Shown one piece after another: positions 37,847-49,080 of a DNA stretch of 64,000 nt. Origin of the DNA: a phage; the sequence record PZ495249.1; one strand, given 5' to 3'. A program made the position numbers and the translations under genes. Position 1 is the first letter of the stretch; each line of letters starts with the position of its first letter. The notes under the pieces are model-generated. The model searched no databases. It saw nothing but the letters and a program-made list of their open reading frames with translations, and was not told where the DNA came from.

Positions 37847-38410
37847 ATGATCTTCCACATTACTCCCTATCTTTCTGGTGATATCGGCAAAGGCATCAAC
37901 GATACCATCCGTGAACTGCCGGAAGATAGTTGGATTTGCTTGAGGGATATCGACACGATGTTCCTACTACCAGAACAACCGATGTGGCTTGAAACCCTCG
38001 TCCGTTCTAACCCAGAGTATGATGTTATTGGTGCATCATGCAACCGCTTGGGATCTACTTACCAATTGTTCGGTAACGAAATAAGTGACGATTCAGACAT
38101 ACGCAATCACATAGAAATTGCGAAAGCAGCCCGAACAGCCTGGGGCAATAGCATTGAAGATGTTCCTCTGGGAGTACCACTTGCAGGATTCTTCTTATTA
38201 TTCAGGAAGAGTTTGTGGCAAGAAATTCCATTCGAAGAAAGATCTATTCAATTCGATTTAATCTTCTCTAATACTCTACACGCAGCAGGAAAGCGATTAG
38301 GAATCATGCGAGGAATGTATCTGTTCCATACTTATCGTCTTGGAGCAATCGATCCACGTAGAGCCATTTCGCATCTCATTCACTGCCAGGATATGGAGAA
38401 GGTAATATGA
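37847..38410 (+). CDS. hypothetical protein (187 aa), possible sugar-nucleotide transferase
   Basis: track ORF; CAGGAGGGAGAA RBS; heads a three-gene block with two glycosyltransferase-like paralogs. Confidence 0.55.
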   Translation: MIFHITPYLSGDIGKGINDTIRELPEDSWICLRDIDTMFLLPEQPMWLETLVRSNPEYDVIGASCNRLGSTYQLFGNEISDDSDIRNHIEIAKAARTAWGNSIEDVPLGVPLAGFFLLFRKSLWQEIPFEERSIQFDLIFSNTLHAAGKRLGIMRGMYLFHTYRLGAIDPRRAISHLIHCQDMEKVI

Positions 38411-38436
38411 TTGATAATTTAAGGAGGATGTTAAAC

Positions 38437-39405
38437 ATGCTTGTTCATAAGCCCCGCTTATATTGTGATAACAAGTTAGGGAGTGGGTGCGACTATCACC
38501 GAGTGGTGATGCCTTTTGCTGATAATAAATTCAAACCAAAAGAGAATGTATTGGTGTTCAACCGTATTTATTCTCGTGGTGCAGAAGAGGTTCGCCGTCT
38601 GAAAGAGCGTGGTGTTAAAGTGGTAGTAGATTTAGATGACTTCTATGAACTTAACCCTGAGCATTACCTGGCAAGCGTGTTCACAAGTCACACACAGAAC
38701 ATCATTGACATGGTGAAATTAGCAGATATTGTTATCGTCACCACTGAATATCTGGCTTACAAGGTAAGGCCACTGAATAGAAATGTGGTGGTTATCCGTA
38801 ACGCACTGCCTTTCGACACTGGTCAGTTTACCCTGAGTGAAGATAAAGAGTCAGACACTCCGCTGATATGGGCGGGTGGTGCAAGTCACTATCCTGATCT
38901 ATCTCTTGTCTCGAACAGTTTTGATGATGATTTGTTAACAATTGCCGGATATGAAGAGCACAAGTCTGCTCCTGCTGGTAGTCATCAGCAATTGACAACT
39001 GCCGAGTGGAGAAAAGTCAGACGTAAGCTACCAAATGCACAATACAAACCAGCAGTACATCATTTAGGCGAGTATATGTCGGTGTACGATGGTCATGCCG
39101 TAGCTATTGCTCCCTTGGTTGATAACGACTTCAATGCTTGTAAAAGCAACTTGAAGATCCTGGAGGCAGGAGCTAAGGGACTACCTATCATTTGTTCTAA
39201 GGTGTTACCATATTATAATCCGGTGGATGCTAACGTGGTGTTTTATGCTGAATCCCGCGCAGAATGGCACTACGAGGTGGTGAAACTTCTTCGTAATCCA
39301 AACTACGCAGAGGATCGTGGTTTAATGCTTGCAGAACACGTCAGAACACATTACAATCTTGATGATGCAAATGAATTGCGCCGACAAGTGATCGAAAGTT
39401 TATAA
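38437..39405 (+). CDS. putative GT-B-type glycosyltransferase, paralog 1
   Basis: track ORF 38407..39405 trimmed to Met after AAGGAGG; C-terminal KSNLKILEAGAKGLPIICS motif. Confidence 0.6.
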   Translation: MLVHKPRLYCDNKLGSGCDYHRVVMPFADNKFKPKENVLVFNRIYSRGAEEVRRLKERGVKVVVDLDDFYELNPEHYLASVFTSHTQNIIDMVKLADIVIVTTEYLAYKVRPLNRNVVVIRNALPFDTGQFTLSEDKESDTPLIWAGGASHYPDLSLVSNSFDDDLLTIAGYEEHKSAPAGSHQQLTTAEWRKVRRKLPNAQYKPAVHHLGEYMSVYDGHAVAIAPLVDNDFNACKSNLKILEAGAKGLPIICSKVLPYYNPVDANVVFYAESRAEWHYEVVKLLRNPNYAEDRGLMLAEHVRTHYNLDDANELRRQVIESL

Positions 39406-39413
39406 GGAGTTCT

Positions 39414-40358
39414 ATGCCTAACATTGTGCTTGACACACGCGACGGACATAATTATAGTGTCTGTGATTTCCATAGAATTATCCTTCCATACAAACGAGCG
39501 CTCACCATTAACCCACAACACAATATCTTCGTGTTCAATGGTGTGCCTACTCGTGGGAAGTCAGGATTCCTGGCTCTCAAACAACTTGGTTTCAAAATGG
39601 TTATGGATCTTGATGACTCTCTACATATTCCAGAAGGACATATGCTTGAGGACTTGTTTGATACCCGTATCCGTGATGACCTCAAGTGGTTTTTGGAACG
39701 GAGTGATTTGGTAACAACAACTACTCCTGCTCTCCAGAAAGAACTCTCAGAATATAATGACAACGTGCATATTGTGCCGAATGGTTTGCCTTTCGATGAA
39801 TGGCAATTCACCATAACAAAGGATCGTTATTCTAAGAGTCCACTGGTGTGGGCTGGCAGTGAAACCCATAAACATGACTTGGCAATCCTACCGCCCCTCG
39901 GTAAGATGCTAACACTCTGCGGATTCCGTAGAGACAAAGAAGAGCTAAGTAGCTTGCAATGGATATTGATACGAGAAGATATTCAACCTGATTGTATCTA
40001 TGAAGGTGTCCGACCATACGCCACTTACATGGAATCGTATGACGGTCATCAGGTGAGCATTGCTCCACTTGTGGATAATCCTTTTAATAATGCAAAAAGC
40101 AATCTCAAGATTCTTGAGGCTGGAGCCAAAGGCTTACCGCTGATTTGTTCTCCTCGTGAGAATTATTTCACCGAAGAGTTTAAGGATCTGGTTTACTTTG
40201 CCGATTCATTATCCGAATGGAAAGATCTGGTAGAATACTTAGTAGAGTCTCCAGATATTTGTGTTGAAAAGGGAATGGCCTTAGCCAAATATGTACGTGC
40301 TCAATACAGTATTGACGCATTAAACGAGACTCGTAGATTACTTATTGAGAGGTTGTAA
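39414..40358 (+). CDS. putative GT-B-type glycosyltransferase, paralog 2
   Basis: track ORF; AAGGAG RBS; same C-terminal motif (KSNLKILEAGAKGLPLICS) and overall colinearity with paralog 1. Confidence 0.6.
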   Translation: MPNIVLDTRDGHNYSVCDFHRIILPYKRALTINPQHNIFVFNGVPTRGKSGFLALKQLGFKMVMDLDDSLHIPEGHMLEDLFDTRIRDDLKWFLERSDLVTTTTPALQKELSEYNDNVHIVPNGLPFDEWQFTITKDRYSKSPLVWAGSETHKHDLAILPPLGKMLTLCGFRRDKEELSSLQWILIREDIQPDCIYEGVRPYATYMESYDGHQVSIAPLVDNPFNNAKSNLKILEAGAKGLPLICSPRENYFTEEFKDLVYFADSLSEWKDLVEYLVESPDICVEKGMALAKYVRAQYSIDALNETRRLLIERL

Positions 40359-40639: not shown

Positions 40640-42409
40640 GTGACACATGTTGTAAATAAGTACGGCTTTAATATTGATTTGAGTCGAGAAGGTCACACTG
40701 GTTGTCCACGTTGTATGAAGAATGGTAGAGATCGTTCACAGAATAACTTGATGGTATATGGGTTAGATAGTGGCGGTGAGCACAAAGGAGCACACTGCTT
40801 CTCATGCGAATTTACCATTCCGAGTCAAGAATGGTTGGATGAACACGGTGAAGAAATTGAAGAGGAGGATATCTTGGGAAGCGAGTTCAACCCACAAATT
40901 CATGATAAACTGAAAGAACAAACCGGAACAAACCCACGAGGCTATCGTGGAATCCGAGAAGATATTTCAAAACCCCTGGGTGTACGTTATGGTTATGATG
41001 CTGAAACAGGCAATGTGACAGACACATATTATCCAACCACTAAGAGCTATCAGATCGCAGGTTATAAACACCGCATTGATCCGAAAGACTTTACGCAACC
41101 CGTAGGGGAAACAGGTAAAGAATGTGACCTGTTCGGTGAGTTTAAATATCGAAACCACAGTGGTACAATCGTCATCGTAGGTGGTGAGCATGACATGCTT
41201 GCAGCTACACAGATGCTGATGGATCATAACAAAGGTGGTAAATACCCTGTGCCAGCCGTTGTCTCTGGTACATGCGGTGAGAGTTCCCTGCACAAGCAAC
41301 TGCAATCACGCTACAAGTTCCTTGATCAGTTCAAGAAAATCATTCTCTGCATGGACAATGATGATGCTGGTAGAGCAGCAGTAGAGAAGTGTGTTAAGAT
41401 TCTACCTCGCAACAAAGTGTACGTGATGGACTTAACTGAGGTTAAAGATCCTAATCAGGCACTTGAAGAAGGGAAGGTTGATCACTTCATTGACCGATTC
41501 TTTAAAGCGAAGATGTACACCCCTGCTGGTGTATACGCATCAAACGTCCTGTACGAGGCTGCATTGGAATGTTTGGAGGCTAAGGTCATAACCCTACCGC
41601 CATTCATGCGACAGGCTGCTAACATGCTTGGAGGCGGTTTGGTGGAGGAAGAGATTACTGTTATTCTGGCTAAAACCAGTATCGGTAAAACTCTCCTGGT
41701 GAATGAGATCACCAAACACATTATCATGGCGCACCCAGAGCATACTCTTGGCGTTCTTTCCTTGGAGGCAACGTACAAGAAGTATTCTCGTAACTTGCTG
41801 TCATCTTTCCTGCACATTCCTCTGCACCGTAAAACGGCAGAAGAGAAACAGGAGATCCTGAAAGCGAATGAGGAGAGAATTCGTAACTTCTACGAGCACG
41901 AAGACGGCACTCCACGTTTCTACGTGTGTGATGACCGAGGAGCTAACGTAGACGTTATCAAGGAAAAGGTTCTGGAGATGATCATCTACTTCGGAGTGAC
42001 AATCCTTGTTATCGACCCTTATTCTGACTTGCTTTCTGGTATGGATGTTTCCGCGCAGGAAGAACTCGCAACTTGGCTGAAACGTATTATGAAAGAGTAC
42101 GGTATCACTATTATCGTAATCTCTCACGTTAAGAAGTCTTCCAATAACAGCAATGAACACATTGTGGAAGATGATGCAATGGGTAGTAGCTTCCTGGCTA
42201 AAGGTGCTGGTATCACCATCGCACTGGAACGTGACAAACAAGCAGAAGATCCAATGGAACGAAACCGTACATATTGCTACATCCTCAAGAACCGTGAGTT
42301 CTCTGAGACAGGTGCAGCAGGTAGTTTCTTCTATGAAATCAAGACTGCTACCCTTCATGATTACGATCAGTACATGAACAAACTGCCTGTACCCGAAGGT
42401 AGTTATTAA
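40640..42409 (+). CDS. bifunctional DNA primase/helicase (T7 gp4-like), GTG start
   Basis: N-terminal Cys4 zinc ribbon; TOPRIM-like acidic motifs (MDNDDAG); C-terminal P-loop KTSIGKT. Confidence 0.85.
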   Translation: MTHVVNKYGFNIDLSREGHTGCPRCMKNGRDRSQNNLMVYGLDSGGEHKGAHCFSCEFTIPSQEWLDEHGEEIEEEDILGSEFNPQIHDKLKEQTGTNPRGYRGIREDISKPLGVRYGYDAETGNVTDTYYPTTKSYQIAGYKHRIDPKDFTQPVGETGKECDLFGEFKYRNHSGTIVIVGGEHDMLAATQMLMDHNKGGKYPVPAVVSGTCGESSLHKQLQSRYKFLDQFKKIILCMDNDDAGRAAVEKCVKILPRNKVYVMDLTEVKDPNQALEEGKVDHFIDRFFKAKMYTPAGVYASNVLYEAALECLEAKVITLPPFMRQAANMLGGGLVEEEITVILAKTSIGKTLLVNEITKHIIMAHPEHTLGVLSLEATYKKYSRNLLSSFLHIPLHRKTAEEKQEILKANEERIRNFYEHEDGTPRFYVCDDRGANVDVIKEKVLEMIIYFGVTILVIDPYSDLLSGMDVSAQEELATWLKRIMKEYGITIIVISHVKKSSNNSNEHIVEDDAMGSSFLAKGAGITIALERDKQAEDPMERNRTYCYILKNREFSETGAAGSFFYEIKTATLHDYDQYMNKLPVPEGSY

Positions 42410-42778: not shown

Positions 42779-45364
42779 ATGGGAGCATTTACTTTCGACA
42801 TTGAAAGTAACAACTTGCTTAATGATGAGAGTGTGGATTACCTGTCAAGTCCTTATCGACTGAAAGACAGTTTCGAGATGCACTGTATTGTATGCGAGAG
42901 TCATGACACCGGAGAGATTATTGCTTTCCACGATGGAGACAAGTATCACTTCGATGGTCGTCCTTACGTAGAGACTGACGGGAAATACACTTACAGCCTG
43001 TTAGAATACGAACATCAGGATTACACCCATTTTCCAATGAGCGCATTCCGAGACTTCGTTAAAGGCACTGGTGTATTTGCCAACAAACCTCAGTACAAGA
43101 TTACGAAAGTAGTTGGTCATAACATTATCAACTTTGACTTGTTAGCCATTAAACTCTACTTTAAAATGAATTACAGCGTGAAATACAATACTTGGGATAA
43201 TCAGGATGTAGAAATCTGTGATACCATGATCCTGAGTAAAGTGCTGAACCCTGACCGTTTCGGTGGTCATAGCCTGGCGGAATTATCCAGCAAGGCAGGT
43301 GGTGATGTTAAGCTTGACTTCCGTAAAGATATTCCGGTTGAAGATCGATTCAAAACGTTTGCAGCAGACATGCTCTATTACTGTATTTACGATAACAAAT
43401 CGAACACCGCCGTATATAAATATCTGATGGAAGAATGGGGAGACTACGATAAATGGGCGGAACCATTTATTCTTGAACAACGTATTGCTGATATTATCAC
43501 TCGTCAGGAACACCGTGGCTTCGCTTTCAATATGAAACAAGCCGAAGAGAATATAAAAGATCTTGATTCTAAGATGGAAGCGTGTAGACTTGAGGCTGAA
43601 CCTATTCTTCCTCCGAAACCTGCAACGAAAGGTTATCTGAAAGACTTCATTCCGCCTAAACTCCAGTTTAAGAAGAATGGTGATCCAACGAGTAACATTA
43701 CGAAGTTTGCAGCTAAGCATGGTGGTGAACTGGTTGAACGTGAAGATGGATGGTGGTTGATCGCCTTGGATAAGGAAATGAAACTTCCTATCTCCAGTGA
43801 AGAGCCAATCTGTGAACCTACTGTTCCGGCTACACTGAACGACACGACACACATCAAGAACTGGCTGGTAGGATTAGGCTGGAGTCCTTCTGAGTACAAA
43901 GATAAAGACATTACGTTGAAGTCTGGTACTAAGATTAAAAAGGACGAGGCGCAGATGGAGAAAGCGATTCGCGATTACGTGGATCAAACTTTAGCATCAA
44001 ACTTCTGTCAAGATCGTTGTGACCACCTTGAATGTACGCCTGAAACTCTTGAGTGGAAGCTGCGTGACCGTATTGCTAAGGCAAAAGGTAAAGGTGTGAA
44101 GGTATTGACTAACCCATCATTCACCAAGGGGCAGGAGAAAGAGATTTGTCCTAACTTGGCTGAACTGGGTGAGAAGTTCCCGTATGCTACCCAGATCGTG
44201 GAATACCTGACGTACAAACACCGTCGAAACTCTATTCTCGGTGGTGGTGCAGATTGGGAAGATGATGAAGAGGATCAGGAATACAACAAAGGTTATCTTG
44301 CAGCAGTAAGGGCAGACGGGCGTATTCCAACGCCAGCGGCAACGTGTGACGCTGCTACTTCTCGTATGAAACACCGTCTTGTTGCTAACATTCCTCGTGT
44401 AACCTCTCTATACGGTTTCCAGATGCGTAACATGTTTGGTGTAGAGGTTCCGGCATACTTCCAGATTGGTTATGACTTTGACTCACTTGAGGCGAAGATT
44501 GAATCACATTACTGCTGGAGATATGAAGCAGAGCCGCATGAATATTGTAACGCTCTTCTGTTAGAAAAGCCGCACGATGTTCACTCAATGATGGCACGAC
44601 GCATTACAGAAACTATCGGACGTAAGTTTGAACGTGCTCCGGCTAAATCTGTTAAGTATGGTATCACATACGGCGCTCAGGCTGCGAAGGTGGCTAAGAC
44701 AATCGGTAGTGATATGCACACAGGCCAGATGGTTTATGATGCATTCTGGGAAGCTGCAAAGCCTCTCGCATTACTGAAAGAACGTCTGCATGACTTCTGG
44801 GTTAAAACAGGTAAGAAATACATTCTCGGTATCGACGGACGTAAAGTGCCTACCCGTTCTGCTCACGCTATCCTGAACTCACTTTTCCAGAGTGGCGGGG
44901 TAATCTGTGCGAAACGTGCAATGGTGATTTACGACGACCTGATCGAAGAAGAAGGGCTGGCAGTTGACTTCTTTGTTGACGATTGGAAAAACAAATCCTT
45001 CGTGCAGCAAATGATCGCTTACCACGATGAAGCACAACTTGAGGTTACTCGTGACCTGGTTGAGTTCAAATGGTTCTCCAAAGAATCTCTGGGCTGGATT
45101 CAAGTTGAGGATGAGAAAGAGCAGGAACGAATCGACAAAGAATGTATGGCTAAAGTAAATGCGTGGAAAGCTGAGGAAGAAACTCGTACTGGTAAGATCT
45201 GGGCTAACGTACACGAATCTCCGAAAGGTGGTTGGTTTACTGGCTACAGTCGTGCAGGTGAACTGGCATCCATCGCAGTTAAGAAAGCAGGTGAATTCTA
45301 TGGCCTGAACGTAGAACTGACAGCAGGTTATGACTTAGGTAATTCCTGGGCGTCCTGTCACTGA
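42779..45364 (+). CDS. family A DNA polymerase with 3-prime to 5-prime exonuclease domain
   Basis: Exo motif FDIESNNL; polymerase motif B-like KSVKYGITYGAQ; HDEAQ motif C; 861 aa. Confidence 0.85.
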   Translation: MGAFTFDIESNNLLNDESVDYLSSPYRLKDSFEMHCIVCESHDTGEIIAFHDGDKYHFDGRPYVETDGKYTYSLLEYEHQDYTHFPMSAFRDFVKGTGVFANKPQYKITKVVGHNIINFDLLAIKLYFKMNYSVKYNTWDNQDVEICDTMILSKVLNPDRFGGHSLAELSSKAGGDVKLDFRKDIPVEDRFKTFAADMLYYCIYDNKSNTAVYKYLMEEWGDYDKWAEPFILEQRIADIITRQEHRGFAFNMKQAEENIKDLDSKMEACRLEAEPILPPKPATKGYLKDFIPPKLQFKKNGDPTSNITKFAAKHGGELVEREDGWWLIALDKEMKLPISSEEPICEPTVPATLNDTTHIKNWLVGLGWSPSEYKDKDITLKSGTKIKKDEAQMEKAIRDYVDQTLASNFCQDRCDHLECTPETLEWKLRDRIAKAKGKGVKVLTNPSFTKGQEKEICPNLAELGEKFPYATQIVEYLTYKHRRNSILGGGADWEDDEEDQEYNKGYLAAVRADGRIPTPAATCDAATSRMKHRLVANIPRVTSLYGFQMRNMFGVEVPAYFQIGYDFDSLEAKIESHYCWRYEAEPHEYCNALLLEKPHDVHSMMARRITETIGRKFERAPAKSVKYGITYGAQAAKVAKTIGSDMHTGQMVYDAFWEAAKPLALLKERLHDFWVKTGKKYILGIDGRKVPTRSAHAILNSLFQSGGVICAKRAMVIYDDLIEEEGLAVDFFVDDWKNKSFVQQMIAYHDEAQLEVTRDLVEFKWFSKESLGWIQVEDEKEQERIDKECMAKVNAWKAEEETRTGKIWANVHESPKGGWFTGYSRAGELASIAVKKAGEFYGLNVELTAGYDLGNSWASCH

Positions 45365-45402: not shown

Positions 45403-45633
45403 ATGAAATTAGTATTCCAAACAGACGACATTTTCATGTTCACAAAGGATATGGGAACATATACAGGTGGACAGATTATCATCCTGGGAGATAAAAACGG
45501 ATCATCATTTAATATCTTAGGTGACATTCGTAAGGATGGGGAAGAAAAACCTGTGACTGTAACAGGTTCAGAGAGTTGGTTAGAAACTTTATACCAAACT
45601 GGTGTTATCAAATTTATTGGGGAGAAAAAATGA
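45403..45633 (+). CDS. small protein (76 aa), tandem paralog A
   Basis: track ORF; GAGGAGAAAA RBS; C-terminal G.(I/V)K(F/L)(I/L)GE.K shared with next gene. Confidence 0.5.
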   Translation: MKLVFQTDDIFMFTKDMGTYTGGQIIILGDKNGSSFNILGDIRKDGEEKPVTVTGSESWLETLYQTGVIKFIGEKK

Positions 45634-45872
45634 AACTTGTAGAAACAGTAATCACTACCGTAGAATTTGAAGTAGGGGATGTAGTTATGTTCCTGGATGA
45701 AGTTGGCTTTTATAAATTGGGAGATGTAATTGTTCTCCGTAAAGATTCCGAGCCAGAGAGATTCAAAGCTGAGGGTGCAGGGTTTATTGCTGGAGAAGCT
45801 AATGTAACACAGAAATGGCTGCATGATCTTCTGAAAGAAGGTCGAGTGAAACTGTTAGGGGAGTTAAAATAA
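45630..45872 (+). CDS. small protein (80 aa), tandem paralog B
   Basis: track ORF 45576..45872 trimmed to Met after GGGGAGAAAAA. Confidence 0.5.
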   Translation: MKLVETVITTVEFEVGDVVMFLDEVGFYKLGDVIVLRKDSEPERFKAEGAGFIAGEANVTQKWLHDLLKEGRVKLLGELK

Positions 45873-46510
45873 TGGCATTATTCATGACCGTAGATAATCA
45901 AAAGCAAGCAGCATCAGAACTTCTTTCTAAATTGAAGATGGTAGATCCGTTTGCTATGATCGCAGGTGGTGCTCCTCGTGACTGGTACTTTAACACCGTT
46001 GCCAAGGACTTGGACGTATATCTCCGTCTTCCTAACCACAATACCATTGGATTGGTAACTTCCTTGGCTGCAATGGTGGGGATTAAAGATTTCTACCCTA
46101 TCGACAAGATTAAGGAATCAACCTACGCAGAATTACCTAACCTGAAATGGGTGTTTGAAGGTCGTTACAACGGTGTTCAAGTTAATCTGATGGTTATGGA
46201 GAAGGGTGTACGCGAAGAAATTATCAAAGATTTCGACGTGGCTATCTGTCGGGCATGGTTTGATGGGATCGAGTGTCATTACAATGAAGAATTTCAATTC
46301 TGTGTGAAGACTCGTGTTTGCCTGGTTCATGAGAACTACACTGGTAAAGAAGCCCACCTGCGTAAGATGGCTAAACGTTTCCCACAATTCATGTTCTATA
46401 AGAAAGTGGAGATCCCAGAAGAACCGGACGTGAGCTTTGACGCACCTCCAAGCCACGCTAAGGCTGCACCGCTTCCTCGTAAGCTGCCTGATTTCTGTGA
46501 TGAAATTTAA
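45872..46510 (+). CDS. Pol-beta-superfamily nucleotidyltransferase (CCA-adding-enzyme head-domain-like)
   Basis: IAGGAPRDWYF...DLDVYL matches the GG..RD...DxD nucleotidyltransferase signature. Confidence 0.6.
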   Translation: MALFMTVDNQKQAASELLSKLKMVDPFAMIAGGAPRDWYFNTVAKDLDVYLRLPNHNTIGLVTSLAAMVGIKDFYPIDKIKESTYAELPNLKWVFEGRYNGVQVNLMVMEKGVREEIIKDFDVAICRAWFDGIECHYNEEFQFCVKTRVCLVHENYTGKEAHLRKMAKRFPQFMFYKKVEIPEEPDVSFDAPPSHAKAAPLPRKLPDFCDEI

Positions 46511-46561
46511 TAAATAAGGGGTTGACAAGCCCCTCCATTTTATGTTAAGATGAGGACTTGA

Positions 46562-46960
46562 ATGACAGATTCACGCGCTAAAATAACAGTCGAGACTTCT
46601 TACAGTCGTGAGATGAACAGTCTCGTTCTCGTTGAGAAAGAAGCACTTCCGCAAGACAATTCGTTCTTCATACAACTCCTGAGTATCACTGGCGGTGCAG
46701 TACGTTTAAGTGTACGTATCGACGATTCTCAGTTCTCAGAACAAACTGTCACCCGTAAAGAATTTACCCTGTTGCAAGACACACTCCGAAATATCTTAGA
46801 TACTCCAGGCAAAGCCGGAATCATTAATCTTGGTGGAAACAAGATTCAACTTCTGCATTTTGAAAATGGTGAAATCGGTGTGGGTATTGGGAAAGGTAAA
46901 TATCTGTTAGAACCAACAGATGCAATTCTATTAAGAGAATTCTGTGTCAAAGTAATGTAA
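46562..46960 (+). CDS. hypothetical protein (132 aa)
   Basis: track ORF. Confidence 0.55.
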   Translation: MTDSRAKITVETSYSREMNSLVLVEKEALPQDNSFFIQLLSITGGAVRLSVRIDDSQFSEQTVTRKEFTLLQDTLRNILDTPGKAGIINLGGNKIQLLHFENGEIGVGIGKGKYLLEPTDAILLREFCVKVM

Positions 46961-46977: not shown

Positions 46978-47886
46978 ATGCCAGTAATTAATTCCGAAAT
47001 CGACCGCAAGACTAAACAAGAAGCATTCTGGGCTGAGGGTATTGTAGAATACGTTAAGCTGGATAAGTTTGCAGAGATGAAAGTCTCTTACATTAAAGTC
47101 GCTGGTCAGCCGGATAAGAAAATTGAGTCCACTCACAAAGCTTCCATTCTTCTGAAAGAGAAAGGTGCTGGTAAGGATGATCCAGGTGTTTGGATCGGTC
47201 TGGGTGATGTTAAGCTGCATCCAGAGCATGAAAATCTGCAAGTCAAGAAAGACGACCAGTGGGTGACTATCGAACGTGGTGTTGAAATTACACTGGACGT
47301 TAAGCCTAATGAATGGCAGGGTAAAACTTATTACCAATCATCCAAAGGTAAGATCTTCGTTGTATCTACCGAAGGTGTTCAAGCTGCTGCTCCGAAAGCA
47401 GGAAAAGGTGGTGATAGCACTCCAGCTAAACAACCGTTCAAGAAACGCGATACCGTAGGTATTGAAACTGGTCACGCTGTTAACGGTGCTCTTGAGCTAA
47501 TCCGTGGTGGTGTGAAAGGTGATGCCTTTGAACTCGCAGGTGTAGTACAGTCTGCCACTGTAACGCTGAAAGCAGAAGTTGCTAAGGCTCGTGGTGTGGA
47601 TATCACTGATTACGATCTGGGTGCTTCTGTCGGTCATGCTATCCTGAATGCTTGCCGTGATCACTCTCGCGATGATGTGACCATTGACGAACTGATTGAA
47701 GCTGCTCGCGATGTGCTGGCGCTATCTGATAAGGTGGCTGCTGCAATCCGTGGTGATGCTCCTGTTGCTGAATCCAAACCAGCCGCAGAGAAGCCAAAGA
47801 CAACTCGTAAGCCAAAAGAGGCGGTAAAAGCTCCTGAGCCAGAGCCAGAACCTCCAATGGACTTCGACGACGATATTCCTTTCTAA
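46978..47886 (+). CDS. ssDNA-binding-protein-like replisome protein with E. coli SSB-type C-terminal tip
   Basis: C-terminus ...PEPEPEPPMDFDDDIPF identical to the E. coli SSB tail tip; adjacent to polymerase and primase-helicase. Confidence 0.65.
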   Translation: MPVINSEIDRKTKQEAFWAEGIVEYVKLDKFAEMKVSYIKVAGQPDKKIESTHKASILLKEKGAGKDDPGVWIGLGDVKLHPEHENLQVKKDDQWVTIERGVEITLDVKPNEWQGKTYYQSSKGKIFVVSTEGVQAAAPKAGKGGDSTPAKQPFKKRDTVGIETGHAVNGALELIRGGVKGDAFELAGVVQSATVTLKAEVAKARGVDITDYDLGASVGHAILNACRDHSRDDVTIDELIEAARDVLALSDKVAAAIRGDAPVAESKPAAEKPKTTRKPKEAVKAPEPEPEPPMDFDDDIPF

Positions 47887-47890
47887 GGAT

Positions 47891-47928
47891 AAAAATAAAG
47901 GGAGCCTCTTTCGAGGTTCCCTTTTTTA
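47891..47928. terminator. bidirectional terminator at convergence of middle and late blocks
   Basis: 9-bp stem flanked by A-run on one side and T6 on the other; between convergent genes ending at 47886 and 47929. Confidence 0.6.
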
Positions 47929-49080
47929 TTACACAGCATTTACGGATAAGTAGGAGCTATCAGAAGCAACCACCGTACCTTGATATGTGGCAGTACATCC
48001 TATCCTGCACCCGCCATCGCCTACTCCAGTAATAAGACCATTACTATCAACCGTAGCCACTGTAGGATCTGTTGTGGTATAAGTGATAACCATATCTGAT
48101 AACGACGCTGCACCATCTGGTGTTATCGTTGCCACAAGTTGTTGTGTAGTCCCTACACTCATTGCACTCAAGCTTTCAGTGTACACGCTTAATGTAGATG
48201 CATAGCCTCCAGAACTATCAGAGAGCGTTGTTCCAACATTGTTTTTAGCTGTTAAACTTGCATCGAAACCACCTTCACTAACAAACGACATTAGCCCATT
48301 AGTATCAATGGTCATAATAGAAGTATTACTTGAAGCATAAACTTTATCTGTTATTGGTGCTCCGGTTGGAGTAACAGAGTATGTTAATTGTTTCGTGCCT
48401 CCCACTATTGCAATACCGATGGAATCTGTGGTAATGCTTGTGGCTGTCGGTACTATACTGGTCATGATAGTTAGATCGTCTATTTTACCACGCAGCATTA
48501 GCGCGTTATCTGTAGTCCCAGCAATACAGAAGGGATTAGCAGTATTTCCCCCGAAACCCTTAGAAATAGTTAAAACAGATCCGAGAAAGACATTATCTTT
48601 CTTCACATACAAGCTACTCCCTGACTTCGTTATTGTCAGTCGAAACCAAGTATTAACTGGTAGTGCAGCAGTCCCAAAACGAAATCTTTGGACTTCCCCT
48701 GTCGTGCTGTAGCCATCTATACTAACGGATGCGAATACTTGATACGTATTGTTTAAGGTTATCCACCAACTACCAGAACCAGCATTGTTATTCAAGTTAC
48801 CGCATAGAATAGCTTGAGAGGTGTTATCTAAATATAACCATGTGTCTATAAGTAGGTCGGTAGTAGTCCCAACCACAAGACCAGTAGGTAGGCCACCAGA
48901 CGGGTTTGTAACGGTTATTTTACTATTAGATGTTCCACTAAATATGAGCGAACCTTTCCCTGATGCCGAATCTGTAGACTCGGCAACACCTGCACCCAAG
49001 GTAACTACACCGAATTCTTGCAAGCGTTTAACGATGTAGTTTACGTAAGGCTTTCCTCCGGCGAGTAACACTTCAAGCAT
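47929..49080 (-). CDS. tail fibre/adhesin-like protein with Ig-like (Big_2-type) C-terminal domain
   Basis: TTDPTVATVDSNGLITGVGDGG Ig-like motif; Thr/Ser/Gly-rich; first gene of late leftward block. Confidence 0.65.
   Translation of the reverse strand: MLEVLLAGGKPYVNYIVKRLQEFGVVTLGAGVAESTDSASGKGSLIFSGTSNSKITVTNPSGGLPTGLVVGTTTDLLIDTWLYLDNTSQAILCGNLNNNAGSGSWWITLNNTYQVFASVSIDGYSTTGEVQRFRFGTAALPVNTWFRLTITKSGSSLYVKKDNVFLGSVLTISKGFGGNTANPFCIAGTTDNALMLRGKIDDLTIMTSIVPTATSITTDSIGIAIVGGTKQLTYSVTPTGAPITDKVYASSNTSIMTIDTNGLMSFVSEGGFDASLTAKNNVGTTLSDSSGGYASTLSVYTESLSAMSVGTTQQLVATITPDGAASLSDMVITYTTTDPTVATVDSNGLITGVGDGGCRIGCTATYQGTVVASDSSYLSVNAV

Follow-up and report, generated by a model that had tools for sequence, protein, structure and literature searches.

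A probable replicative single-stranded DNA-binding protein with an Escherichia coli SSB-type C-terminal tip in a Stephanstirmvirinae-type phage

[quoted passage not shown] This gene is the final one of a co-oriented plus-strand replication block, and it most likely encodes the replicative SSB of a myophage of the Stephanstirmvirinae type (phi92/phAPEC8-like). The translated open reading frame (ORF) ends in ...APEPEPEPPMDFDDDIPF, or, over a longer stretch, ...KAPEPEPEPPMDFDDDIPF. Both the position and the length that an earlier sequence-only reading had assigned to the ORF are exact when compared with the ORF list and the translation.

An AlphaFold2 model made from a 65-sequence alignment (mean predicted local distance difference test score, pLDDT, of 82) contains a single beta domain. 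This domain spans residues 1-130 (46978..47367), is predicted to be an OB fold, and is the putative site of single-stranded DNA (ssDNA) binding. The Lys, His, Trp, and Tyr side chains conserved in this domain (K47, H53, W72, K90, which is invariant, W95, and Y118/Y119) would be in keeping with ssDNA binding. A short, basic inter-domain linker follows (residues 131-156, 47368..47445, net charge +3), which is little conserved and disordered, with pLDDT below 50 at 137-152. The next domain is acidic (residues 157-257, 47446..47748, net charge -7) and consists of four helices, at 160-176, 183-205, 212-227, and 236-257, modeled with pLDDT of 92-96. It contains the near-invariant motif D158-x-x-G161-x-x-x-G165-H166-A167-x-N169-G170, which in the family takes the form D-x-x-G-x-E-T-G-H-A-x-N-G, also found in the window protein. 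Conservation is 91% or higher at each of D158, G161, G165, H166, A167, N169, and G170, with 98% at D158. We regard this domain as a putative oligomerisation or partner interface. From about residue 258 the model is a disordered tail of some 45 residues with the tip at its end. The greater part of the tail is a linker in which Pro, Ala, Lys, and Glu abound (residues 258-290, 47749..47847), with pLDDT below 50 at 265-285, and it is the least conserved region of the protein. All of these segments, like the tip at residues 291-302 (47848..47883), are encoded on the plus strand.

The tip, EPPMDFDDDIPF, is the same as the 12-residue end of E. coli SSB. Comparison of the window end APEPEPEPPMDFDDDIPF with the C-terminal end of E. 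coli SSB as given by the chain of PDB entry 1eqq, ...APAAPSNEPPMDFDDDIPF, including an hhalign alignment, gave 12 identical residues, one beyond the 11 that had been claimed from the sequence alone. A six-frame translation of the 64-kb window has a single occurrence of the pattern D[DE][DES][ILV]PF, at the C-terminus of the SSB-like protein. Within the family, conservation over the last eight columns amounts to 4.0 bits per column; the helical domain has 2.6, the OB domain 2.5, and the linker 1.4. P301 and F302 do not vary, and conservation at D295-D299 is 92% or more. By these measures the identity of the tip is not a chance one, since the pattern is found only once in the six frames and the tip is the best-conserved segment of the family.

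We surveyed the endings of 134 near-full-length representatives that are mutually no more than 50% identical. The sequence ends in PF in 108 of them (81%) and in [ILV]PF in 100, the window protein likewise having an acidic run followed by [ILV]PF. An ending in DDDIPF was seen in 26 representatives and the exact 11-mer PPMDFDDDIPF in four. From the per-column conservation together with these counts, the tip is a selected, family-wide trait as judged by sequence, with the extended, enterobacterial type present in a subset. The peptide EPPMDFDDDIPF also ends the canonical SSBs of P1, P7-like phages, and Tls, and those of many Klebsiella, Vibrio, Yersinia, Aeromonas, and Pectobacterium phages. The implication that such an ending is unusual was thus not borne out, given the same 12 residues on canonical phage SSBs (P1, Tls, and others) and the [ILV]PF rule in the family. 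Host-type tips on phage SSBs are commonplace, and the feature is real but ordinary.

At the DNA level, the final 39 nucleotides of the gene (47848-47886, stop codon included) are 92-95% identical to the ssb genes of E. coli plasmids of 88-101 kb, and 80-90% identical at most of some 2,300 matched chromosomal places. The linker DNA upstream of these 39 nucleotides had no match in the comparison that matched the plasmid ssb genes. This hints that tail segments may be exchanged among the ssb genes of mobile elements, the 39 nucleotides being too short to be conclusive.

The body of the protein is a different matter, as the sequence-only reading had anticipated in describing it as not obviously similar to the host SSB. 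Pfam gave no match at E <= 1, and in a sequence search of the PDB the tail was the sole match. The NCBIfam SSB model PRK09010 matched residues 276-302 alone, with 20 bits against a cutoff of 260, and when the family profile was aligned with E. coli SSB by hhalign, only the tail aligned, over the last 16 columns. Foldseek against the PDB returned nothing at E <= 1e-3; the top fold matches included the OB domains of Stn1 and RPA32 and tRNA-synthetase anticodon-binding domains, with scores similar to those of bacterial SSBs. Against BFVD, the Foldseek matches were uncharacterised phage proteins alone.

Among the features of a bacterial-type SSB, the predicted OB fold and the disordered linker with an acidic D-D-D-I-P-F tip are present, and an OB-domain sequence match to PF00436 or PRK09010 was not found. 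The canonical SSBs of E. coli, P1, Tls, and HK75 (Pfam PF00436) have in common with the window protein an OB fold, a disordered linker, and the tip EPPMDFDDDIPF. Their OB domains, however, have no detectable sequence homology to that of the window protein, and they lack the four-helix domain. The linkers also differ, being rich in Pro, Lys, Glu, and Ala in the window protein but in Gly, Gln, and Pro in E. coli SSB. The logic proposed for the window protein, an OB-fold ssDNA binder with an acidic tail ending in an aromatic residue, is that of T7 gp2.5 and T4 gp32. The acidic tails of those two proteins couple to replisome partners and autoregulate DNA binding, roles equivalent to those of the C-terminal tip of E. 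coli SSB (SSB-Ct), which binds more than 12 partners.

The window protein belongs to PHROG 4477 (function unknown), which it matched at E 5.9e-95. Homologues were found by tblastn in 349 phage records. Close relatives form 90 clusters at 90% identity, and an exhaustive profile search at E <= 1e-3 yielded at least 339 clusters when grouped at 50% identity, 217 of them with E <= 1e-10. Protein identity to the window protein is 72-75% for phi92, VEcB, BME3, and others, about 58% for phAPEC8-like phages, and about 35% for the rV5/V5-like Vequintavirinae. The Stephanstirmvirinae proteins of phi92 (gp156), BME3, and Tr1, all of PHROG 4477 and 72-75% identical to the window protein, are orthologues whose genes have the same place, after the primase-helicase and polymerase and before convergent tail genes. 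Citrobacter phage Tr1 (Stephanstirmvirinae, 154 kb) is the nearest GenBank relative by DNA, with 79.7% identity. Several GenBank records label homologues as SSB, and most are still called hypothetical. In the complete annotated genome of BME3, the homologue is the sole gene annotated as a single-stranded DNA-binding protein, and a tblastn search with the OB domain of E. coli SSB, run as permissively as E <= 10, found no match in the window, in BME3, or in the region from Tr1.

Tblastn matches confined to the C-terminal half, in phiTE, NINP13076, and Salmonella phage 40, revealed no clearly new architecture. The phiTE protein is in fact a full-length member of 408 residues with a diverged N-terminus. 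The matches in NINP13076 and Salmonella phage 40 are Vequintavirinae genes annotated as short SSBs of about 130-144 residues, and are probably fragments.

One member of the family has been studied genetically, and a 2026 preprint on the DRT10 defence system is the only work on the family that we found in the literature. The protein is Bas52_0087 (QXV84166.1) of Escherichia phage RudolfGeigy, or Bas52 (Vequintavirus; MZ501102). The authors call it SSB-like and attribute to it two OB folds, a C-terminus that is disordered, and a tip reading FDDDIPF, and it is the DRT10 trigger, genetically required for activation; the DRT10-escape mutants of Bas52 both map to it, as D252V and Y351C (10.64898/2026.04.29.721553). 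Its expression alone caused no toxicity and did not suffice to trigger DRT10, and the authors proposed an interplay with SbcB/ExoI (10.64898/2026.04.29.721553). DRT10 also restricts Stephanstirmvirinae, the trigger having been mapped in Bas52 and not in those phages (10.64898/2026.04.29.721553).

Bas52_0087 is 34.9% identical to the window protein by tblastn over 83% of the query, and its locus was confirmed. The two proteins have in common an OB domain, a helical domain, a disordered tail, and the FDDDIPF tip, and differ just before it (...AQYSFDDDIPF in Bas52_0087, ...EPPMDFDDDIPF in the window). Bas52_0087, at 408 residues, has an extra beta insert of about 70 residues between the OB and helical domains, which the window protein does not have. 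Vequintavirus homologues in general are about 400 residues long, and the beta-rich insert falls at the position of the window linker 47368-47445 (retrieved region L003:1357-2583). Neither the family alignment nor the AlphaFold2 model contains a second OB-like domain in the window protein such as that reported for Bas52_0087. Since the insert is missing and the model has a single beta domain, the window protein is, on alignment and model, a short-form member of a family with short and long forms. In the family alignment, D252 of Bas52_0087 corresponds to D158 here and Y351 to A254, both within the four-helix domain.

Upstream of the SSB-like gene, the plus-strand block includes a primase-helicase with Toprim and DnaB_C domain matches (40640-42409) and a family-A polymerase, PolA (42779-45364). 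The gene had been placed immediately after this cluster, which needs correction, as three ORFs separate it from the polymerase. These are an ORF at 45576-45872 and, on the plus strand, a nucleotidyltransferase-like ORF of 212 residues at 45872-46510 (phrog_10174 and phrog_1614; BME3 has one too) and an ORF of 132 residues at 46562-46960, directly before the SSB-like gene. The last of these was considered as a conserved partner and set aside, since the gene upstream in Bas58 does not resemble it. A sigma-70-like site at 46522-46551 (TTGACA, an 18-nucleotide spacer, TAAGAT, and an upstream TG) overlaps a small hairpin before the 132-residue ORF; the number of sigma-70-like sites in the region is within chance expectation. 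Directly upstream of the primase-helicase, two adjacent plus-strand ORFs of 332 and 314 residues (38407-40358) have weak matches to group-1 glycosyltransferases, and BME3 has four annotated glycosyltransferases at the corresponding position. On the other side, a pattern scan found a terminator-like hairpin on the plus strand at 47897..47924 (a 12-bp stem with 6 GC pairs, then TTTATT). It sits between the SSB-like gene and a convergent Big_2/LamG tail-protein gene on the minus strand (47929-49080).

The 3' end of the gene varies among relatives. About 15 of the 90 close clusters, or about one in six, carry 15-17 residues beyond IPF, the sequences being APIGLQYGRNFLHCF, APVGLQYARHAISALYA, SPLGLQYPNHSMYALYA, APVTLPFPRHAIHAI, and similar ones. 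The extension is found in Tr1 (retrieved region L001:12925-12972), in BME3 (L008:2473-2520), and in an 86-member cluster, P0029, whose C-terminal 30 residues are common with BME3. The Tr1 and BME3 proteins end in ...D(D/E)DIPF-APIGLQYGRNFLHCF, with 15 residues beyond the tip, whereas the window protein stops at IPF. The window protein lacks an extension, nor is there any remnant of one downstream of the gene, although P0001, a protein 97% identical to that of the window, carries one. Outside the family, lambdoid phage HK75 and Vibrio phage BT-1011 have tip and extension together on their canonical SSBs, and Klebsiella phage P8734 has both on its primase/helicase (non-family loci in retrieved regions L004:1036-1584, L005:1078-1584, and L006:518-2581). 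Tip and extension are likewise present on the SSBs of 93 plasmid records, out of 99 plasmids that were hit, 69 of them conjugative. No paper on the extension peptide turned up in literature searches. By its sequence, the extension would leave the carboxylate of the terminal Phe not free; in E. coli SSB, this carboxylate contributes to partner recognition. AlphaFold2 gives the extension as disordered (pLDDT below 50), and intramolecular docking of the extension was set aside on this result.

HNH or homing-endonuclease genes lie directly 3' of the SSB-like gene in Tr1 (L001:12944-13438), Bas58 HeinrichReichert (L002:7092-7670), and phiTE (L012:1689-2192), and no HNH gene lies there in the window, BME3, or Bas52. 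Because of this distribution, the 3' end of the gene looks like a recurrent insertion site for homing endonucleases. In Bas58 (L002:1-2678), the coding sequence of the DNA polymerase is also annotated as two joined pieces, around the putative homing-endonuclease gene bas58_0077. The Tr1 locus suggested that the extension might be read-through into the HNH gene, but this was rejected as a general explanation since BME3, HK75, and BT-1011 have the extension without a downstream HNH gene.

A replicative SSB is the best-supported function for the gene because of the OB fold, the linker-plus-tip layout, the place in the replication module, and the fact that no other SSB was recognised in BME3 or the window. 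The mechanism as a whole, which we consider probable, would run as follows. Where the phage's own primase-helicase and family-A polymerase expose ssDNA, the N-terminal OB fold would bind it, the acidic four-helix domain would provide self-association or cooperativity, and the flexible linker of about 45 residues would display EPPMDFDDDIPF. In the manner of E. coli SSB, this peptide would dock into the SSB-Ct pockets of genome-maintenance proteins, candidate partners being host ExoI/SbcB, RecQ, PriA, Topo III, RNase HI, and DnaG and/or phage-encoded proteins. The tip probably also folds back on the OB domain, modulating DNA binding. We infer ssDNA binding, oligomerisation through the helical domain, and recruitment of partners dependent on the tip.

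Several observations favor an SSB. The arrangement of OB fold, disordered linker, and acidic tip matches that of bacterial SSBs, the gene is the last of a block with the primase-helicase and PolA polymerase, and no segment of the family is more strongly constrained than the tip. The homologue Bas52_0087, described as SSB-like, is genetically required for DRT10 activation. Other points weigh in the opposite direction. No sequence-level relation to any characterised SSB was found by Pfam, NCBIfam, PDB, or hhalign searches, and published ssDNA-binding data for any family member were not found in the literature searched. The proposed role of the helical domain depends on where two escape mutations fall in an alignment and on a structure predicted by another group. 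From the sequences, a free tip is not universally required in the family, since about one in six close clusters carry residues beyond it.

The sequence-only reading had offered either a phage SSB that taps the host SSB interactome or a decoy that competes for SSB partners. Its first half, a phage SSB, gained support from the predicted OB fold, the place in the replication module, the sole SSB annotation in BME3, the linker and tip, and the SSB-like homologues. A role of the tip in tapping the host interactome, or as a decoy, would follow by analogy from what is established for the SSB-Ct of E. coli.

A bolder reading, which we think unlikely, is that the family is a structurally distinct class of SSB, built of one divergent OB fold and an acidic four-helix oligomerisation domain, in which the host-identical tip would actively hijack host SSB partners such as ExoI in infected cells, and defence systems such as DRT10 would sense that hijacking. 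The post-tip peptide of 15-17 residues (APIGLQYGRNFLHCF-like) would be a portable element, exchanged among phage and plasmid SSBs and a primase-helicase, which masks or re-targets the tip, so that the extension acts as a switch.

It is also possible, but rather improbable, that the protein is an SSB whose tip serves mainly phage partners and acts in cis, in the manner of T7 gp2.5, with the identity to the host owed to shared ancestry or to recombination between ssb tails. The near identity of the last 39 nucleotides to plasmid ssb genes next to an unrelated linker would fit this, as would the same tip on P1, Tls, and many unrelated phage SSBs and the occurrence of tip and portable 15-residue extension on family members, canonical SSBs, and one phage primase/helicase. 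The phage moreover has its own polymerase and primase-helicase. These two proteins, however, lack matching acidic tails; a T7-style tail was looked for on the primase-helicase of the window, which ends in ...PVPEGSY. The host-identical stretch is also longer than the minimal DDDIPF and takes in EPPM, as enterobacterial SSB does, and phage recombinases are dependent on a host-type SSB-Ct.

A protein that acts mainly as a decoy or competitor would draw host SSB partners, such as the nucleases ExoI and RecJ, RecQ, and PriA, off host SSB or phage DNA intermediates by titrating or redirecting them, with the coating of the lagging strand secondary. The perfect match to the host tip over 12 residues would fit a decoy, but a tail alone would suffice for that purpose, and here both the OB fold and the second domain are conserved. 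The gene is placed in the replication block, the BME3 homologue is the sole annotated SSB there, and a canonical SSB OB domain was undetected in BME3 or the window. Bas52_0087 alone is also neither toxic nor DRT10-triggering (10.64898/2026.04.29.721553), and we consider a predominant decoy function decidedly doubtful. Finally, an OB-fold replisome adaptor other than an SSB (compare RPA32/Stn1 or PriB) with an SSB-like tail is very improbable, for although Stn1, RPA32, and tRNA-synthetase anticodon-binding OB domains score like bacterial SSBs among the top fold matches, the complete genome of BME3 reveals no alternative SSB, the linker-plus-tip layout is typical of SSBs, and several homologues in GenBank are annotated as SSB.

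The replicative SSB proposed here is a new member of a recognised family, for which the SSB-like nature and the tip are already in print in the case of Bas52_0087. The analysis ties the window protein to Bas52_0087, the DRT10 trigger, which is the family's sole experimental handle, and places the escape residue D252 in a domain that is conserved well beyond Vequintavirus. It also supplies a confident functional label, replicative SSB-like protein, for a gene that is mostly called hypothetical in GenBank, and this label matters for the widespread phi92-, phAPEC8-, and rV5-like coliphages that are candidates for therapeutic use.
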